Shown here piece by piece: positions 4,228 to 11,076 of a stretch of DNA of 31,768 bases. Position numbers and translations under genes: made by a program. Origin of the DNA: a virus; the IMG/VR virus record IMGVR_UViG_3300002220_000467; one strand, given 5' to 3'. Each line of letters begins with the position of its first letter. Within the stretch, counting starts at the first letter, position 1. Under the pieces are notes generated by a model that saw only the letters and a list, made by a program, of their open reading frames with translations, was not told where the DNA came from and ran no database searches.

Positions 4228-5643
4228 GTGATTATTATATCAGTCGGTGAAGCTTTTCGGAACCATTACAGGGATGAGGAGCCTAGCGAACAGGTTGATC
4301 TCCAGGGGCAACCTCTCTATAAGGCCCTGGCGGATGCGATACCTGTATATTGTGCACATGAAAAAATTATAGATATAATAGAGGCTATCCCTAATCCCAG
4401 GAACCCTAATCAGCACCCTGATTCCCAAATAGAGCTGCTGGCTAGGATAATCAAAGCCCAGGGCTGGAGGAATCCCATAGTTATCAGCAAGCTCTCTGGG
4501 TTCATCACCAAGGGCCATGGCCGCCTCCTGGCTGCTCAGAAGCTGGGAGTTAAGCAAATACCAGTCGATTACCAGGACTATGCCAATCCTGCGGCAGAAT
4601 GGGCCGATATCATAGCAGATAACAAGATAGCAGAGCTGGCTACACCAGATAACAAGCTCATCAAGGAGATCCTGGATGAGATCAGGGGCGATATTGACCT
4701 GGACCTTACTGGCTATGCAGGCGTCCAGATGGACCAGCTCCTTAAGGACATTAAGAAGCATGATGATAAATTCAGACCTGGTGAGACCAATAGCCGCCCC
4801 AAGATCGATTTCATAGAGGACGAGAAGAGGGCCCTGGAGGTGCCTGCTGAGGATGCCCATCTATTCGAGGGTAAGAAGAATGTGGTGGTCATATTCTCGG
4901 GCGGCATAGATAGCACCTTTTCATTGTTTTGGGCCAAACAGAACTTCGGTGATCGCAGGGTGATAGGGATCTTCTCAGACCCTGGCGTAGAGCTGCCAGG
5001 TGCGGCTTTGCATGCTTATCAGGTCTGCATGTACCTGGAGGTTGAGTTCGTCCTGGTCAAGCCCAAGAGCGATATGTTCATTGAGATGGTTAAGAGAGGG
5101 GGATGGCCTAGCACCATATTCCCGTGGTGCCAGAGCGATTTCGTTTATGGTCCTATCAATGACTGGATTCTAGCCAACCTGGAAGCGCATGAGACCGTAG
5201 TCATGGATGGCAGCTCTGGTGATCAGGTCACCAGGCTATCCAAGAAAACCAAGACCTCCAAGAGCACCGAGAAAAGGATGCATGAGTACGCATATTATCA
5301 TCCTCGCTATGACGTCTCAAGGGAAGCATCCGAGAAGATCCTGAAGCATGCCGGTGTACCATTCTGGTGGGGCTATGAGATGGGCGCTAAGAGAACCGCC
5401 TGCTGGATGTGCCCTGGCATGAAAGGAGAGCAGGCTTTGTTCATCCAGGAGCGTTTCCCAGGGCTGGCTGATTATGTCCGCAAGATGGAGAAGTACATGG
5501 GAAAGCCCCTAGAGCAGATGAATGACAAGAGCTTTGATATGAAGGTCGAGATCGGAAAGAGACAGGCGGCCCGACGCGCCAAAGGCGAAGCACTGGAGGC
5601 AGAGGAAGATTATAAGATAGTGGCTGACGCGCAGGATAGCTAA
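4228..5643 (+). CDS. ParB-like N-terminal domain fused to PP-loop / PAPS-reductase-family domain
   Basis: N-terminus PNPRNPNQHP..QGWRNPIVIS..GHGRLLAA..ADN is ParB/Srx-like. C-terminus has SGGIDS (4897-4914), DPGVELP, WPSTIFPWCQ and RTACWMCP (CxxC at 5401-5412). Start codon uncertain. Confidence 0.8.
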   Translation: MIIISVGEAFRNHYRDEEPSEQVDLQGQPLYKALADAIPVYCAHEKIIDIIEAIPNPRNPNQHPDSQIELLARIIKAQGWRNPIVISKLSGFITKGHGRLLAAQKLGVKQIPVDYQDYANPAAEWADIIADNKIAELATPDNKLIKEILDEIRGDIDLDLTGYAGVQMDQLLKDIKKHDDKFRPGETNSRPKIDFIEDEKRALEVPAEDAHLFEGKKNVVVIFSGGIDSTFSLFWAKQNFGDRRVIGIFSDPGVELPGAALHAYQVCMYLEVEFVLVKPKSDMFIEMVKRGGWPSTIFPWCQSDFVYGPINDWILANLEAHETVVMDGSSGDQVTRLSKKTKTSKSTEKRMHEYAYYHPRYDVSREASEKILKHAGVPFWWGYEMGAKRTACWMCPGMKGEQALFIQERFPGLADYVRKMEKYMGKPLEQMNDKSFDMKVEIGKRQAARRAKGEALEAEEDYKIVADAQDS

Positions 5644-5660
5644 GCCCAATCGCTAAGTTA

Positions 5661-6440
5661 ATGAAGAAAGGAATTACATTTTGGGTTATGCCTAAAAGAG
5701 AATTTTATCCCAGAGAACGTCTATTAAAAAAGGAGATGTTATTTGGTTACGATCCAGAGAGCGCTAATTCTACTCTGTTTGAAGCTCGATCAATGGATGA
5801 AGTGGCGTTCCTTTATTATCAATGGGATTATTATGCCGTTGGCTATTATTATGCCGCTGATCTAATCGTCAATAATGCTTTAGATGCAACTCTTAGAGGT
5901 GAGGATCGGCAGCGTATAAATGTTGAAAAATATCATATTCTTATTGATAGAATCGATATTGTAGTTTTTCCCGTCATTTTCCTTTACAGGCAGTATCTAG
6001 AGACTAGGTTAAAAACAATGATAATTAAAGACAATATAATAAACAAACTAGAATCTGGGGAAGCTATTGATATAAATCTGTTATTAAGTAAAAAGGATAC
6101 TAATCATAAACTTGATGTTTTATGGAAAAAATGCAAAGAAATAATAAAAAAGAATTATAACGAACAGGGCATTGATACTAATGATGAAATAGAATTGAAT
6201 GTTATGGAGGAGTACATAGAGGAATACAAAAATTTAGATGGAAGTTCATATACTTTTAGATATCCTGTGAATACGAATGGTGAACTTCATCATCTTGATA
6301 TTCCCCAAATTAATCTCAAAAAACTAAGCGAAATTATGAAGAATATTTTCGACTATCTTGAATTTTATAAAGATTGCCAAAATGGTTCTATAGATTACTA
6401 CATGTATGATCGTATAGATTACTACATGTATGATCGGTAA
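5661..6440 (+). CDS. AT-rich HEPN-like protein (probable accessory gene / moron)
   Basis: GYYYAAD..FPVIFLYRQYLETRLK..HKLDVLW..DGSSYTFRYP follows the HEPN ExxLK / HxL / RYP pattern; visibly much lower GC than its flanks. Confidence 0.55.
   Translation: MKKGITFWVMPKREFYPRERLLKKEMLFGYDPESANSTLFEARSMDEVAFLYYQWDYYAVGYYYAADLIVNNALDATLRGEDRQRINVEKYHILIDRIDIVVFPVIFLYRQYLETRLKTMIIKDNIINKLESGEAIDINLLLSKKDTNHKLDVLWKKCKEIIKKNYNEQGIDTNDEIELNVMEEYIEEYKNLDGSSYTFRYPVNTNGELHHLDIPQINLKKLSEIMKNIFDYLEFYKDCQNGSIDYYMYDRIDYYMYDR
6389..6436 (+). repeat. Perfect 24-bp tandem duplication
   Basis: TATAGATTACTACATGTATGATCG occurs twice (6389-6412, 6413-6436), giving IDYYMYDR twice. Confidence 0.95.
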
Positions 6441-6442
6441 CA

Positions 6443-6461
6443 GAGGCGGTTATTCCGCCTC
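6443..6461. terminator. Hairpin between convergent genes, probable bidirectional terminator
   Basis: GAGGCGG-TTATT-CCGCCTC, a perfect 7-bp stem; the minus-strand stop codon lies in the loop. Confidence 0.55.
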
Positions 6462-6839
6462 CTTCTTTGCAGTCTTCTTACCACGCGAGAGAGGTCTTGC
6501 ACCGGATACAAGAGAGGCTAACCCATCTCTCAGGGCTTCCGCTACTTGCTCTTTCACTATATCGGCTAGGGAATCGGCTATAATCTCTTTGATTTGCCCT
6601 TCAATACGCTTATTCCACTTATCCTCGAACTTGACCACGAAGGCCCTGCCATTCCAATGGGATATTGTATCTTCAACGAGCCCAGGCAGATCCTCCTTAA
6701 GCTTCTCTTGCATATACTCGACCGCTCGGGATTCCATATACTGATCCAATACATCCCGGCAGACCGAGCACACGGAAGGTTCGCCTTTGACGGCATTTGC
6801 GGGCAATACGTGTTTGCCACAGAATATACAGGAGGGCAT
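6450..6839 (-). CDS. Zn-finger + helical hypothetical protein
   Basis: CIFC...CSVC; helical middle; basic tail; GGAGGTG RBS upstream. Confidence 0.7.
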   Translation of the reverse strand: MPSCIFCGKHVLPANAVKGEPSVCSVCRDVLDQYMESRAVEYMQEKLKEDLPGLVEDTISHWNGRAFVVKFEDKWNKRIEGQIKEIIADSLADIVKEQVAEALRDGLASLVSGARPLSRGKKTAKKEAE

Positions 6840-6959
6840 TTACTGCACCTCCTTGGGTAGCCATCGGCGCTGTCTCTCTAGTACGATCTTCACCAGGGCT
6901 TTGTAAGCTGGACTGTCTCTGTCCAGGGGCTTGGAGCACTTCTTCGCTTTGCGAGACAT
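6840..6959 (-). CDS. Small basic protein, 39 aa (not in ORF track)
   Basis: Translated by hand: MSRKAKKCSKPLDRDSPAYKALVKIVLERQRRWLPKEVQ. GGAGG RBS 8 nt upstream; TAAATG coupling on both sides. Confidence 0.65.
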   Translation of the reverse strand: MSRKAKKCSKPLDRDSPAYKALVKIVLERQRRWLPKEVQ

Positions 6960-7130
6960 TTAAGCTACCTCCACGCAATCCATAAGCACTATCTCAACTA
7001 CAGTTTGCTCGGCCTCTGCCAGATCTCCGACAACCATAAGCTCGGCCATTCTCTCGGTCTCTGCCGGAGCGGATTCCATAAACACGCCTCTTTCCAGGGT
7101 AGTAACCTCGAACTTCCACAGATATTGCAT
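6960..7130 (-). CDS. Small acidic protein, 56 aa (not in ORF track)
   Basis: Translated by hand: MQYLWKFEVTTLERGVFMESAPAETERMAELMVVGDLAEAEQTVVEIVLMDCVEVA. Its stop abuts the next ATG. Confidence 0.6.
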   Translation of the reverse strand: MQYLWKFEVTTLERGVFMESAPAETERMAELMVVGDLAEAEQTVVEIVLMDCVEVA

Positions 7131-7228
7131 TTTACTTCACATCCCAGAGCGGCTTACACGCCGCCCCTAGTACCTTATAGGCCCGTTTGCGACGTTTTAC
7201 TATCGGTCTACTGATAGCGAAAAATAGT

Positions 7229-7675
7229 CTATAAGCCTTTAACGTATAATCCGGCTTTCCTTAATGCGCGGGAGGCTATACCATTGGAGGGATCACACGC
7301 GGGGCTTTGCTTGAGCATAAAGGCACGCTCGGCACCGAATACCTCGGCCATCCATACGGCCCACTTAGCGCCTTCTAGGTACGCCTCTGTCAAGTTCCGG
7401 CCCCTATACTCCCCCTTGCCCGTCCCTCGCTCAACTACGTGCGGTACATCGCCCTCCCAGGTCACGGCGCAAGGGCACCGGGGCACTGGTAGCCCTCCTA
7501 GCTGTTCAGGGCAGATAGGGACAAGCTCATACTTCTCTTTGAGTTCCTGTACGGTCTTCTCTTTGTAGAGCCGATGGCCCATTTTATGCGTTTGACCGTG
7601 ATATCTGCAGGGCACCCCACAGGCGCATAACGAGATGAGCGCTTTGGGTTTATGTTCCACCAATCTAGTTTGCAT
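7229..7675 (-). CDS. tudS: DUF523 family protein (TudS-like thiouracil desulfidase, 4Fe-4S)
   Basis: ISLCACGVPCRYHG, ICPEQLGGLPVPR, YLEGA, and LKQSPAC match the DUF523 signature SxC..CRYDG / CPE..GGLPxPR / LKxxSPSC; GGAG RBS. Confidence 0.8.
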   Translation of the reverse strand: MQTRLVEHKPKALISLCACGVPCRYHGQTHKMGHRLYKEKTVQELKEKYELVPICPEQLGGLPVPRCPCAVTWEGDVPHVVERGTGKGEYRGRNLTEAYLEGAKWAVWMAEVFGAERAFMLKQSPACDPSNGIASRALRKAGLYVKGL

Positions 7676-7682
7676 GTTATTC

Positions 7683-7734
7683 TCCGGGCATAATAAGCCG
7701 CCCGGATATACCTACTCACGCTTATCTTATAAAA
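7683..7734. promoter_or_regulatory. Divergent promoter region between DUF523 and terS
   Basis: TTATAAAA at 7727-7734 (TTTTATAA on the minus strand); inverted repeat TCCGGGC/GCCCGGA at 7683-7706. Confidence 0.45.
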
Positions 7735-7751
7735 CGCACGCTGTGATGTAA

Positions 7752-8147
7752 ATGGCTAGAAAGAAGGCGGTTTTGGATTATGTTATGATAGAGAAACTTG
7801 CTAGTTTGGGGTGCACTGAATATGAGATCGCATATGCGATAGGATATACTCCTCAGCATTTCTCGACTATAAAGAAGAAAGATCAGCTCCTCCGGGAAGC
7901 GATAGACCGGGGTTCAAACACCATCAAGGTAGCCATTCGCCGGGCTCAATTAAAGGTGGCACTGCCTGAAGGCGATTACAACGGCAATGTGTCCATGCTG
8001 ATCTGGCTTGGTAAGCAATACCTGCGACAGAGTGACCACTTAAAACTTTCTGGAGATGAAGAAGAACCCCTGGTAGTGAACACCCTAGCGGACTTTGTGA
8101 AAAATGCCGCGGCCAAAAAAGAAAAGTCTGGATCTTCTGGCACCTGA
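7752..8147 (+). CDS. terS: Terminase small subunit
   Basis: N-terminal HTH (LASLGCTEYEIAYAIG) and GNVSMLIWLGKQYLRQSD motif; immediately upstream of terL. Confidence 0.8.
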   Translation: MARKKAVLDYVMIEKLASLGCTEYEIAYAIGYTPQHFSTIKKKDQLLREAIDRGSNTIKVAIRRAQLKVALPEGDYNGNVSMLIWLGKQYLRQSDHLKLSGDEEEPLVVNTLADFVKNAAAKKEKSGSSGT

Positions 8148-9594
8148 ATTAATGCAAAGCGACCCTGTTATGGTCGCTACTGACATATTTGGGTCTAAGC
8201 TCTGGAAGGACCAGGGAACCATCATGGAGTATGTCCGGGATCACCCCAGGGTGGCCTGGAGGTCTTGTCACGGCATCGGTAAGACTTATGTCGTTGCCAG
8301 GTTGGTTCTCTGGTTTTTGTTTTCCTTCCCATATTCCATCGTAATCACCACCGCACCAACCTGGAGGCAGGTTGAAAAGCTGGTTTGGAAGGAGATTCGG
8401 GCCTGTTATTCCAGGTCTAAGATACCTTTGGGCGGCAATTTGGCACCAAAGGCCACCGAACTCTCGCTGGTGGGGGATGAATGGGTCGCTATGGGCCTCT
8501 CCACCAATGATCCGGATAGGTTCCAGGGATATCACGCCGAATATCTCTTGGTGGTGGTTGATGAAGCGGCGGGCGTGCAGGAGGACATATTCGAGGCCGT
8601 CGAGGGCGTGTTGACCTCGGCCCATTGTAGGTTGGTTCTGATTGGCAACCCAACTAACATCGGTGGGCAATTTTACCGGGCTTTCCGAGAAGCTAATTGG
8701 GTAACAGGCCATACTAGTGCCTGGGATACTCCCAATTTCACCGAGCTGGGAATAACCAGGGAGGACATAGAGAATGACACCTGGGAGGCCAAGGTTCCCA
8801 GGAAGGTGAGTGGGGATTATGATTGGCCTGCCCCATACTTGATTACTCCAGCCTGGGTATCGGACAAGTTCAAGCGCTGGAAGCCCAACCATCCGGCATA
8901 TTCTGCCAGGGTGGAGGGGGAATTCCCGGAGCAGGGCGAATACAACGTTATTCCGTTGGCCTGGATCGAGGCGGCAATAGCAGCATGGCCGGATACTGAG
9001 CCAACGAATGATAGAATCATCATCGGGGTGGATGTAGCTCGGGGCGGGATGGACCTGTCGGCCATCGCTATACGCCGCGGGAATAAGCTCCTCTTCATCG
9101 AGACTTTCGCCGGTTTGGATGGGCCGGAGTTGGCAGGAGAGGTGGCCGTTAGATACAGGAAGCTCAATGCAGACCTGGTGAATGTCGATATTATTGGCGT
9201 TGGATCTTCCGTTTATGATTCTCTGAAATCCTATGGAGATATCGAGGTTCAGGGCGTTAATGTGGCGGTGGCTTCAGACGTTAAGGATGAGAAAGGAAAT
9301 CGAGTTTATCAGAACCTGAGATCAGAGCTATGGTGGACACTCCGAGAAGCCATAGATCCTAAAAATCCCGAGCCTTTGACCCTGCCAGATGACGATAACC
9401 TGCTGGCAGATCTGGCTGCTCCTCAGTACAGTTTTCGAAAGGGTTGGATTCAGATCGAAGCAAAGGAAGACACCAAGAAGAGGCTAGGCCGAAGCCCCGA
9501 TTCCGGGGACGCTCTGATGCTAACATTTGCGCCAGTAGAAGAAATGTCTCCGGTGGGCTGGGGAACTTCCAGATTAACAGGTAAGAGAAGATGA
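8104..9594 (+). CDS. terL: Terminase large subunit
   Basis: Walker A SCHGIGKT, TAPT..Q, Walker B VVVDEAAG, coupling motif GNPT, RNase H-like IGVDVA..D, C-terminal RSPDSGDAL. Confidence 0.95.
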   Translation: MPRPKKKSLDLLAPELMQSDPVMVATDIFGSKLWKDQGTIMEYVRDHPRVAWRSCHGIGKTYVVARLVLWFLFSFPYSIVITTAPTWRQVEKLVWKEIRACYSRSKIPLGGNLAPKATELSLVGDEWVAMGLSTNDPDRFQGYHAEYLLVVVDEAAGVQEDIFEAVEGVLTSAHCRLVLIGNPTNIGGQFYRAFREANWVTGHTSAWDTPNFTELGITREDIENDTWEAKVPRKVSGDYDWPAPYLITPAWVSDKFKRWKPNHPAYSARVEGEFPEQGEYNVIPLAWIEAAIAAWPDTEPTNDRIIIGVDVARGGMDLSAIAIRRGNKLLFIETFAGLDGPELAGEVAVRYRKLNADLVNVDIIGVGSSVYDSLKSYGDIEVQGVNVAVASDVKDEKGNRVYQNLRSELWWTLREAIDPKNPEPLTLPDDDNLLADLAAPQYSFRKGWIQIEAKEDTKKRLGRSPDSGDALMLTFAPVEEMSPVGWGTSRLTGKRR

Positions 9595-9713
9595 TGGAGC
9601 AACGAATCGCTACGGAGCTATGCCTGATCAGGCTATTGCTTGAACGTTTCTTGGAATCTACAGATCCGGTAGAGTATGCAAGGTACGCAGTACAGAAGCA
9701 AAAATTCTCATAG
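9591..9713 (+). CDS. Small hypothetical protein, 40 aa (not in ORF track)
   Basis: ATGA overlap with the terL stop; MMEQRIATELCLIRLLLERFLESTDPVEYARYAVQKQKFS. Confidence 0.45.
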   Translation: MMEQRIATELCLIRLLLERFLESTDPVEYARYAVQKQKFS

Positions 9714-9723
9714 AGTGGATTGG

Positions 9724-11076
9724 ATGAAATTCTTGGAACGGCTTTTCCCTAAGAAGCAAGCAGCAGCACCCATCATGTCAGGCTCTCCGGTGATGCGTCA
9801 GAGGTTTTCGCTTGGCTATGTGGACCGGAGCGTTGTTGTCTCTCCGGAACGCATTGCTGCCAACCGTTCTATCCCGGTGGTGCTGGAATCCCTATCAGGT
9901 CTATCAAGGCTTTGTTTCACCGGATTTGATCACGTCCTAAAGCCTCTCGATCCATCCGATGACACCCAGGAGGCCAATATCAAGAAGGCCCTGCAGCAGA
10001 TCCATATCCAGGAGAAGAGAATAGGAAGAATCGGGAAATCCCGACGCAACGGAACCCTAGGGCTGGTCCGGGCCACCGCACTGGATGGCTGGAGCTTCAG
10101 GCAGGCGGTAGCCGAATACTCCACCATCCAGGAGGGCAACTGGCAGAATTTTGCTGAAATCCAGCTGCTGCCTGCTCAGAGCTTCGGAACCGCTCCGGGC
10201 AACTTGCCTTATAGCTCTTGCATCGCGGACAAAATTCTGCCTGGTATTGTATATGATATCAACCAAGACATTACTCGATTCTTCCAGGCGGGGGATAACG
10301 CCCTGCCACGGGAGCTAGATCCTGACAATATTATATATATCGAGGACATGACGATCCCGGACGACCTGAGCTTCATGAAAGTCTTGAATCCAACCATTGA
10401 GGCTTGGAAAGAGGTTAGGCGTTATGGCATGCTGGCTGAGCACCGGGTAGGCGTGCCTGATGAAGTAGCCTCGATCAATGCCAAAGACGTTGTGGCTATG
10501 ATCGAGGCCAAAATCCCGGTTAAAATGCAGGATCTGATTGACCATTGCGACGACCTGGCAGAAAGGCAGTCTCATGAAAGCAAGAAAGTCGCTCTGGCAG
10601 GAACCAAGATCGAATATCCCAAGATCGACATGCCGCTTAACCCTTGGGATGCTGATCAGTACCTCAAGGAAGAAATCTGTGATTTCTTTTTTAAGAGGAA
10701 TGTGATAAAGCGGGTTGAGCAGGCGGTCAGTTCTTCAGACTCCGGCGCCAAGGCCCTCATTGATATCCACGTATCCAGCGAGAGAGAGCTTTGGGGCAAA
10801 CCCTTTGAGAGCTTGTGGAATACCTGGCTGGAATGGAACGGTTTTGAGCTGGTGGATGAGTTTGCCTGGTGGGATTGGTCTCCGGAAGACCAGGATAAGC
10901 AGCATAAGAGGAACCTGGAGAACTTCCGATCCCATGCTATGACCATCCAGACCTTCTGCGAACTGGAAGGACTGCCTATTCCGAACGATGAGGAACTGCA
11001 AGAAATCGCTGCTCAGCACGCCCTGCTTTTTGGAGGCAAAGACAACTTCCTGAGCCGTTCCAACATGACGGTGTAA
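9724..11076 (+). CDS. Portal protein
   Basis: About 450 aa in the canonical position between terL and head morphogenesis. Start moved to the ATG at 9724 (in frame with the track ORF at 9676), which follows the small upstream ORF. Confidence 0.75.
   Translation: MKFLERLFPKKQAAAPIMSGSPVMRQRFSLGYVDRSVVVSPERIAANRSIPVVLESLSGLSRLCFTGFDHVLKPLDPSDDTQEANIKKALQQIHIQEKRIGRIGKSRRNGTLGLVRATALDGWSFRQAVAEYSTIQEGNWQNFAEIQLLPAQSFGTAPGNLPYSSCIADKILPGIVYDINQDITRFFQAGDNALPRELDPDNIIYIEDMTIPDDLSFMKVLNPTIEAWKEVRRYGMLAEHRVGVPDEVASINAKDVVAMIEAKIPVKMQDLIDHCDDLAERQSHESKKVALAGTKIEYPKIDMPLNPWDADQYLKEEICDFFFKRNVIKRVEQAVSSSDSGAKALIDIHVSSERELWGKPFESLWNTWLEWNGFELVDEFAWWDWSPEDQDKQHKRNLENFRSHAMTIQTFCELEGLPIPNDEELQEIAAQHALLFGGKDNFLSRSNMTV

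Follow-up and report, generated by a model that had tools for sequence, protein, structure and literature searches.

A predicted ParB-PP-loop enzyme and a TudS-like iron-sulfur protein form an obligate two-gene module beside the packaging genes of tailed viruses

The virus record IMGVR_UViG_3300002220_000467 of IMG/VR (31,768 nucleotides; hereafter the window) carries two genes, here called A and B, next to its packaging genes. Gene A (positions 4228-5643, plus strand) encodes a protein of 471 amino acids (aa) in which a ParB-like N-terminal domain is followed by a PP-loop ATP-pyrophosphatase domain of the 3′-phosphoadenosine 5′-phosphosulfate (PAPS) reductase fold. Gene B (7229-7675, minus strand) encodes a 148-aa protein resembling the [4Fe-4S] protein TudS (DUF523). 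We find that A and B constitute an obligate two-gene module of tailed viruses, located beside the packaging genes, and that the two genes travel and evolve together. The initial annotation of the window, based on its letters only, had read the first gene as a putative sulfur-inserting PP-loop enzyme and the second as a TudS-type protein, and had suggested that the two may form one system; all three proposals are in agreement with the analysis reported here, the sulfur insertion remaining putative.

The linkage of the two genes is evident in several collections. Starting from A in IMG/VR, we found 25 contigs encoding a full A-type protein (29-100% identity), and B adjoins A in 24 of them. In a collection containing one genome per species, B is present at all 19 A loci, which lie on contigs of metagenome-assembled genomes (MAGs) titled Methanosarcinales, Akkermansia, Verrucomicrobiales, Planctomycetota, Bacillota, Eubacteriales and Desulfobacterales. 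The same arrangement occurs in three of three ENA/Logan contigs, where precomputed Pfam assignments, made on independent gene calls, place PF01507 next to PF04463, and in the cultured Methanoculleus virus Blf4 (MZ171369), whose A-B pair is directly upstream of terL. Look-ups that began with B-like proteins recovered A in four cases out of five. Altogether, about 50 relatives show the adjacency, some with identities as low as 26-30%, and they include viruses of archaea as well as of bacteria. At about 70 control loci, which match the ParB domain alone, no B was found, and DUF523-like matches occur in just 15 of the 50,697 GenBank phage records. The initial annotation had proposed co-occurrence among related viruses as a means of judging the system, and by this measure A and B do not vary independently.

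B lies 3′ of A in 36 of the 37 distinct pairs, of which 18 are co-directional, 18 convergent and one divergent; in 24 pairs the two genes overlap or are separated by a gap within about 66 nucleotides (nt), and co-directional genes overlap or abut. The pair is found beside unrelated families of terminases (Terminase_6N, GpA, Terminase_3) and of portal proteins (SPP1, Phage_portal_2, Portal_Mu), and the distance matrices of A and B are strongly correlated (Mantel r 0.88; none of 2000 permutations as high). Conserved adjacency on differing virus backbones, this correlation, and the separate DUF523 branch of B described below indicate that A and B belong to one system. Clustering of all genes within 5 kb of the pair at 22 loci returned, besides A and B, only terminase/portal genes and extra ParB(-methylase) genes as recurrent neighbours; no recurrent cysteine desulfurase, ThiS-like carrier, DndD/E or other Dnd/Ssp partner was present within this distance. 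A structure prediction for the A-B complex gave a score of 0.00; the run had no controls, and the score counts neither for nor against binding.

The extra ParB-domain genes often adjoin the pair (for instance L108:3591-5957, L036:3759-5018, L043:9610-10797 and L099:1287-2558). At L108, the genes ahead of A encode a ParB standing alone, an ABC-ATPase/GNAT-like protein and a formyltransferase, and surroundings of this type may represent a larger DNA-modification cluster.

Independent assemblies give an identical 471-aa gene call for A. The ParB/Srx-like domain (4360-4797, plus strand; approximately residues 45-190) was recognised by several profiles: the N-terminal third of the protein matches phrog_620 (5e-34) and the N-terminal part of MTase_II (3e-22), and the domain itself matches the Noc/Spo0J/ParB profiles of the PDB at 4e-11. 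Against PF02195 the window protein scored 18.3 bits, below the gathering cut-off of 26.3. Residue conservation in A was scored over 20 relatives, down to 29% identity. Within the G-H-x-R motif of this domain, G96 is invariant and H97 nearly so, and the G-x-x-R pattern associated with nucleotide binding is present. In database searches, the domain shares 53-61% identity with the ParB part of phage N6/N4 DNA methylases (PF01555).

The PP-loop domain (4810-5592, plus strand) matches phrog_424 (2e-27), archaeal NCBIfam models of the PRK13795 type (about 1e-9) and, in PADLOC, BrxP (7e-10) and SspD (1.5e-8); no DndC model was matched in PADLOC at E<=0.01. The window protein gave no PF01507 match in Pfam at E<=0.01, and homologues sharing 36-40% identity with it reach this family with 32-55 bits (cut-off 22.5). 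Sequence matches to QueC, NAD synthase and LarE were dismissed, since they cover the PP-loop motif only. An AlphaFold2 (AF2) model built on the 20 relatives (predicted local distance difference test, pLDDT, 80) was compared with known structures by Foldseek. The model is nearest to PAPS/APS reductases (1sur, 6vpu, 2goy and 2o8v; E 4e-8 to 6e-7, target template-modelling score 0.6-0.66) and, in second place, to TtuA, LarE and other PP-loop enzymes; as modelled, A has the fold of the PAPS-reductase family. The invariant residues comprise the SGGxDS ATP loop (SGGIDS, residues 224-229, in the window), C301, C392-x-x-C395 and a few Gly, Pro, Trp and Arg. Exactly three cysteines are invariant among the relatives, and these and the ATP loop hold in both 20-sequence alignments used. 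The alignment contains neither the conserved CysH-type C-terminal Cys (E-C-G-L-H) after the C-x-x-C nor the extra Cys dyad of DndC. Judged from these conserved residues, A is a PP-loop enzyme with a three-Cys site, like DndC and the [4Fe-4S] thiolases. The A-type family is real but small, because an exhaustive profile search yielded 143 clusters of the A-type PP-loop domain at E<=1e-30, nearly all of them with the ParB architecture.

The A homologue of virus Blf4 (QXM18622.1; L111:1242-2486) shares 40% identity with A and has a PF01507 match at 4e-14, while its neighbour QXM18623 matches PF04463. QXM18622.1 is annotated as 'DNA modification methylase', although no methyltransferase domain was found in it; the name probably derives from the ParB domain that is common to phage methylases.

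Some members of the A family display unusual features. In the homologue on the 86.9-kb Logan contig ERR13998785_16881 (L110), a TGA occupies the position of the invariant Trp of C-W-x-C (L110:6838-6840). Standard gene calling split this gene, which is whole under table 4 (386 residues printed), and TGA is probably a Trp codon in this viral contig. B, too, is affected on this contig, with a frameshift of one base following C-R-Y-H. Two very long predicted proteins, P0353 (1529 aa) and P0375 (1351 aa), combine the A-type PP-loop domain with that of an ATP-dependent DNA ligase, and P0353 additionally carries a Dam-type methylase and a head protease. Both probably result from the merging of gene calls in recoded genomes, yet a DNA ligase adjoins A in two separate cases.

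Gene B matches PF04463 with 68.1 bits (cut-off 34.7; E 1e-18), and a profile of 20 B relatives matches TudS (PDB 6Z92) at 1e-27. TudS, a desulfidase of thiouracil and 4-thio-UMP, binds its cluster through Cys10, Cys43 and Cys104, and further relies on Glu45, Ser101 and the phosphate-binding Arg17 (PMC10611767). The counterparts of these six residues in B are C17, C55, C127, E57, S124 and R24, respectively. All are invariant in the relatives except C127, which is present in 19 of the 20 and in 119 of 120 database relatives. The position of a further catalytic residue of TudS, Ser103, is occupied by Ala in the window protein and by Ser in 92 of the 120. The substrate pocket differs as well: in place of the V-R-Y-D-G of TudS, the window protein has C-R-Y-H-G. 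The pattern C-R-[YW]-H-G recurs in 109 of the 120 best database matches of B (the His alone in 118), whereas TudS and those DUF523 proteins that are unlinked to A have V-R-[YW]-[DN]-G. A maximum-likelihood tree was built with 43 other DUF523 domains for comparison, most of them fused forms and few of them canonical TudS proteins standing alone. These 43 group into a single supported clade (96/83), and all 34 A-linked B proteins fall outside it. Two non-linked entries group with the A-linked proteins, namely a near-copy of a linked B, of which 3 kb of flank was read, and a 591-aa protein on a long branch. Tree and motif together suggest that the A-linked B proteins are a distinct DUF523 branch.

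The 591-aa protein (P0393; L141:5001-6776) joins the C-terminal domain that groups with this branch to a 460-aa N-terminal part without assignment, and its gene is located downstream of an RNA repair gene of the Pnkp type (kinase, phosphatase and ligase domains), at a distance of about 2 kb. At another locus (L013:5540-5998), the B frame has no ATG, GTG or TTG upstream of the conserved N-terminus, and its first start lies 27 codons into the region that aligns with B.

What the two proteins may do together can be approached by analogy. The reading that we place first, though tentatively, casts A as a sulfur inserter of the DndC/TtuA kind, directed at DNA, and B as its dedicated sulfur partner. 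A would be the catalyst, and its ParB-like domain, as on phage DNA methylases, would bring it to DNA. The PP-loop would use ATP to adenylate a target oxygen, either of a backbone phosphate, as in DndC/SspD, or of a base carbonyl, as in TtuA, and a [4Fe-4S] cluster held by the three cysteines of A would present the sulfur that replaces the adenylated oxygen. Indeed, DndC is a PP-loop enzyme with a three-Cys [4Fe-4S] cluster and receives its sulfur from DndA (PMC10853773). B would bind a thio-nucleotide, for example 4-thio-uridine monophosphate from host tRNA turnover, strip off the sulfur as a [4Fe-5S] intermediate, such as the one through which TudS passes (PMC10611767), and hand it to A. The subfamily-specific Cys of B, beside the phosphate-binding Arg, may carry the sulfur during this hand-over. 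B would take the place of the cysteine desulfurase (DndA, SspA) of the cellular PAPS-reductase-like DNA sulfur inserters, and the virion DNA, once modified with sulfur, would be resistant to restriction by the host. We rank this sulfur-partner model highest because a sulfur-mobilising enzyme invariably accompanies the cellular inserters DndC, SspD and BrxP (PMC10853773, PMC12839542, PMC7188994) and B is the sole constant partner of the viral one.

The comparison with known systems shows both the kinship and the distance. Dnd (DndA/DndC), SspA/SspD and the cysteine desulfurase plus BrxP of BREX type 4 likewise combine a PAPS-reductase-family PP-loop enzyme with a three-Cys site and a sulfur-handling protein (PMC10853773, PMC12839542), and Dnd also includes a ParB-superfamily component (DndB). 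In contrast to Dnd and Ssp, the pair described here is viral and consists of two genes, the ParB domain is fused to the enzyme, and the partner is a TudS-like Fe-S protein. Neither a cysteine desulfurase nor DndD/E or SspB/C is found near it (22 loci, 5 kb), and A differs from DndC in having no extra Cys dyad and no DndC model match. As for TudS and RudS, B is a clear homologue of TudS (6Z92, 1e-27) that retains the three cluster cysteines and the equivalents of Glu45, Ser101 and Arg17, but it stands on a separate branch, has C-R-[YW]-H-G instead of V-R-Y-D-G and, in the window, Ala at the position of Ser103. Moreover, B lacks the DUF1722 domain of RudS and is obligately tied to a PP-loop enzyme, a tie that is not reported for TudS/RudS (PMC10611767, PMC11417400). 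TtuA/NcsA/TtuI and [4Fe-4S] LarE also use PP-loop adenylation and a three-Cys cluster, whose free iron carries the sulfur. These enzymes need a single polypeptide and act on tRNA or a cofactor, whereas the module always includes a second three-Cys cluster protein and has a ParB-like targeting domain.

The phage ParB-DNA methyltransferase fusions (PF02195 + PF01555) resemble A in their N-terminal domain (53-61%) and occupy the same position near the terminase genes, but the catalytic domain of A is of the PP-loop/Fe-S type and not an S-adenosylmethionine-dependent methyltransferase. IbrA/IbrB of E. coli are a prophage-associated pair of a PAPS-reductase-like and a ParB-like protein. They represent the same two superfamilies as A, but as separate proteins; we know of no DUF523 partner for them, and A has no IbrA model match in NCBIfam. 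Taken together, the A-B module appears to be a variant of the PP-loop/Fe-S systems for sulfur modification of nucleic acids, and neither Dnd, Ssp nor canonical TudS.

A number of points weigh against the sulfur-partner model, or against so tight a pairing. The chemistry is read wholly from homology. A's own three cysteines might make a donor needless, and methanogens are able to use free sulfide. The hydrolytic Glu/Ser set of B is that expected of a sulfide-releasing desulfidase, and would suit an eraser as well as a donor. The 18 convergent pairs out of 37 imply that A and B are often not co-transcribed, which is unusual for the subunits of one machine. ParB/Srx folds also bind free nucleotides, so that DNA is a putative target. 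In addition, one contig (L048) contains A and no B within the 10.4 kb read, and no A-B fusion was found among the top 150 relatives of the A PP-loop domain, among DUF523 proteins of 260-2000 aa, or by hhalign of the A profile against P0393. Finally, the third cluster Cys of B is replaced by Gly (S-P-S-G-D) at L045:4728-5123; this oddity and the missing start at L013 could each reflect a start codon out of the ordinary, an error in the sequence or genuine decay.

The convergent pairs and the desulfidase residues lead to the best of the alternatives, which we nevertheless consider rather unlikely: A would thiolate viral DNA or nucleotides, and B, as a desulfidase, would clear thio-nucleotides from the pool or remove off-target products, in a writer/eraser arrangement or as an enzyme with its safeguard. 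B does keep the counterparts of Glu45 and Ser101 of TudS and of the Arg that binds the nucleotide phosphate (PMC10611767), and DUF523 is elsewhere fused to enzymes of salvage and clean-up (purine nucleoside phosphorylase, NUDIX, deaminase, MGMT). The convergent orientation of half of the pairs would imply separate control, as in antagonistic pairs such as restriction-modification. On the other hand, the overlapping or abutting co-directional genes look like translational coupling, the Cys and His that are specific to the subfamily, at the substrate pocket, speak against a generic TudS, and the thio-modification is itself only predicted.

It is improbable, in our judgement, that the target is RNA, with the module rewriting host tRNA thiolation or salvaging pyrimidines from tRNA for host takeover. 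The known substrates of TudS/RudS are 4-thiouridine (s4U) nucleotides and s4U8 of tRNA, and a phage RudS is active (PMC10611767, PMC11417400); furthermore, other viruses fuse a PAPS-reductase-like domain to an RNA-binding PUA domain. Against an RNA target speak the 53-61% identity of the N-terminal domain of A to the ParB domain of phage DNA methylases, the position of the module beside the packaging genes in nearly all loci, and the absence from B of the DUF1722 domain, which RudS needs for tRNA.

Similarly low is the probability we give to a scheme without sulfur transfer, in which A would adenylate its target for another substitution, such as amidation, and B would be only an Fe-S redox or cluster partner. 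This scheme draws on the nearest non-viral relatives of the A PP-loop domain (P0386 and P0389; PRK13795-type), to which a 4Fe-4S dicluster ferredoxin domain is fused, suggesting that the A PP-loop domain needs an Fe-S partner. A plain ferredoxin role, however, would not require B to keep the Glu, Ser and Arg of TudS, and three-Cys PP-loop enzymes of PAPS-reductase, TtuA or LarE-like fold insert sulfur where they have been studied. Lastly, the view that two unrelated auxiliary genes stand together by chance in a terminase-side hot spot, a worry voiced in the initial annotation and nourished by the opposite strands of A and B in the window and by the 1.6-3.5 kb inserts accepted between the two genes in the window, L002 and L136, is refuted by the presence of B next to A in some 50 relatives among the viruses of archaea and bacteria, by the ParB-only loci that have no B, and by the rarity of DUF523 in phage records.

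The insert between A and B in the window consists of four genes. The first is an AT-rich gene of 259 aa (5661-6440, plus strand) that was found only in the closest twins of the window. A variant contig (run X1) joins position 5639 to 6439 with three other letters and represents a natural variant without exactly this gene, whose GC content is 0.40, compared with about 0.50 in its flanks. The 259-aa gene is a strain-variable insert outside the conserved module. The protein had been taken for HEPN-like, and a HEPN RNase had been linked to the system. This link is not upheld, as the protein carries no HEPN family signal and its gene is not found in the relatives and is missing in the strain variant. 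No match was obtained in Pfam (tried to E<=10), PHROG, NCBIfam or PADLOC; a single-sequence AF2 model reached pLDDT 34, too poor to judge a HEPN fold, and a language-model search gave a weak match (rank 25, score 0.90) to a cluster that is 32% HEPN.

The other three genes of the insert, of 129 aa with a Cys-rich N-terminal end (6450-6839), 39 aa (6840-6959) and 56 aa (6960-7130), are stop-start coupled and are situated on the minus strand downstream of B. They are present, as initially annotated, and are also predicted by independent gene callers, but they share the strand of B and lie outside the module. Weak homologues were found for the 56-aa (45%) and 129-aa (36%) genes only, in a single close relative (L011), and the three genes form a variable cassette.

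A check of the open reading frames (ORFs) of the window recovered all those initially annotated, at the same positions. At the left end, a primase/helicase gene (25-1983) is followed by small genes and then by A. To the right of B lie terS (7752-8147, plus strand; phrog_309, 3e-7), terL (8104-9594, plus strand; phrog_2, 3e-49, and PF03237) and a portal-sized ORF (9676-11076). This region makes up the left-hand part of a tailed-virus late region. The GC skew dips below zero over 6-8 kb only, consistent with the minus-strand genes located there. Between B and terS, reading of the sequence defines a divergent spacer of 76 nt (7676-7751), presumably a candidate site for B's own promoter. By eye, this spacer contains a 6-bp inverted repeat (CCGGGC ... 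GCCCGG) and TATA-like A/T-rich stretches facing both directions.

In the GenBank phage collection, the sole match to the window at the DNA level is a Methanosarcinales virus. The virus of the window is widespread, and probably exists in the provirus state as well, because the identical B protein is encoded in more than 500 contig blocks, including viral contigs of 39-52 kb, a 126-kb MAG contig and a 2.8-Mb contig, and because the window stretch is present in sludge and digester runs. Six runs recorded as RNA also contain it.

In the literature searched, the pairing of A with B is an undescribed two-gene module. We found no paper on DUF523 together with a PAPS reductase, or with a PP-loop enzyme in phages, although the 2013 survey of Iyer et al. 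may hold an earlier mention. The pair is absent from the comparative papers on TudS/RudS and on Dnd/BREX, and the Blf4 paper makes no mention of DNA modification. In the case of Blf4, the analysis corrects an annotation, the 'DNA modification methylase' being a predicted PP-loop enzyme. The most far-reaching proposal, which we advance as a possibility and would not call probable, is that viruses of methanogens, Akkermansia, Planctomycetota and others encode a self-contained two-protein Fe-S machine (ParB-PP-loop plus TudS-like) that modifies virion DNA with sulfur, either as a phosphorothioate made without Dnd/Ssp or as a thio-base new to DNA, and that draws this sulfur not from cysteine but from thio-nucleotides that the degradation of host tRNA releases. 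This can be tested directly, since the cultured Methanoculleus virus Blf4 and Akkermansia proviruses carry the pair. Provided that DNA modification is indeed its role, the pair would represent the first pathway of sulfur DNA modification encoded by a virus and, should the proposed chemistry be true, the first such pathway in which a TudS-type cluster protein replaces the cysteine desulfurase. It would then tie the turnover of tRNA thio-nucleotides to DNA modification and provide a function for the C-R-[YW]-H-G branch of DUF523, with a bearing on how viruses evade restriction, including the defences that sense phosphorothioates.

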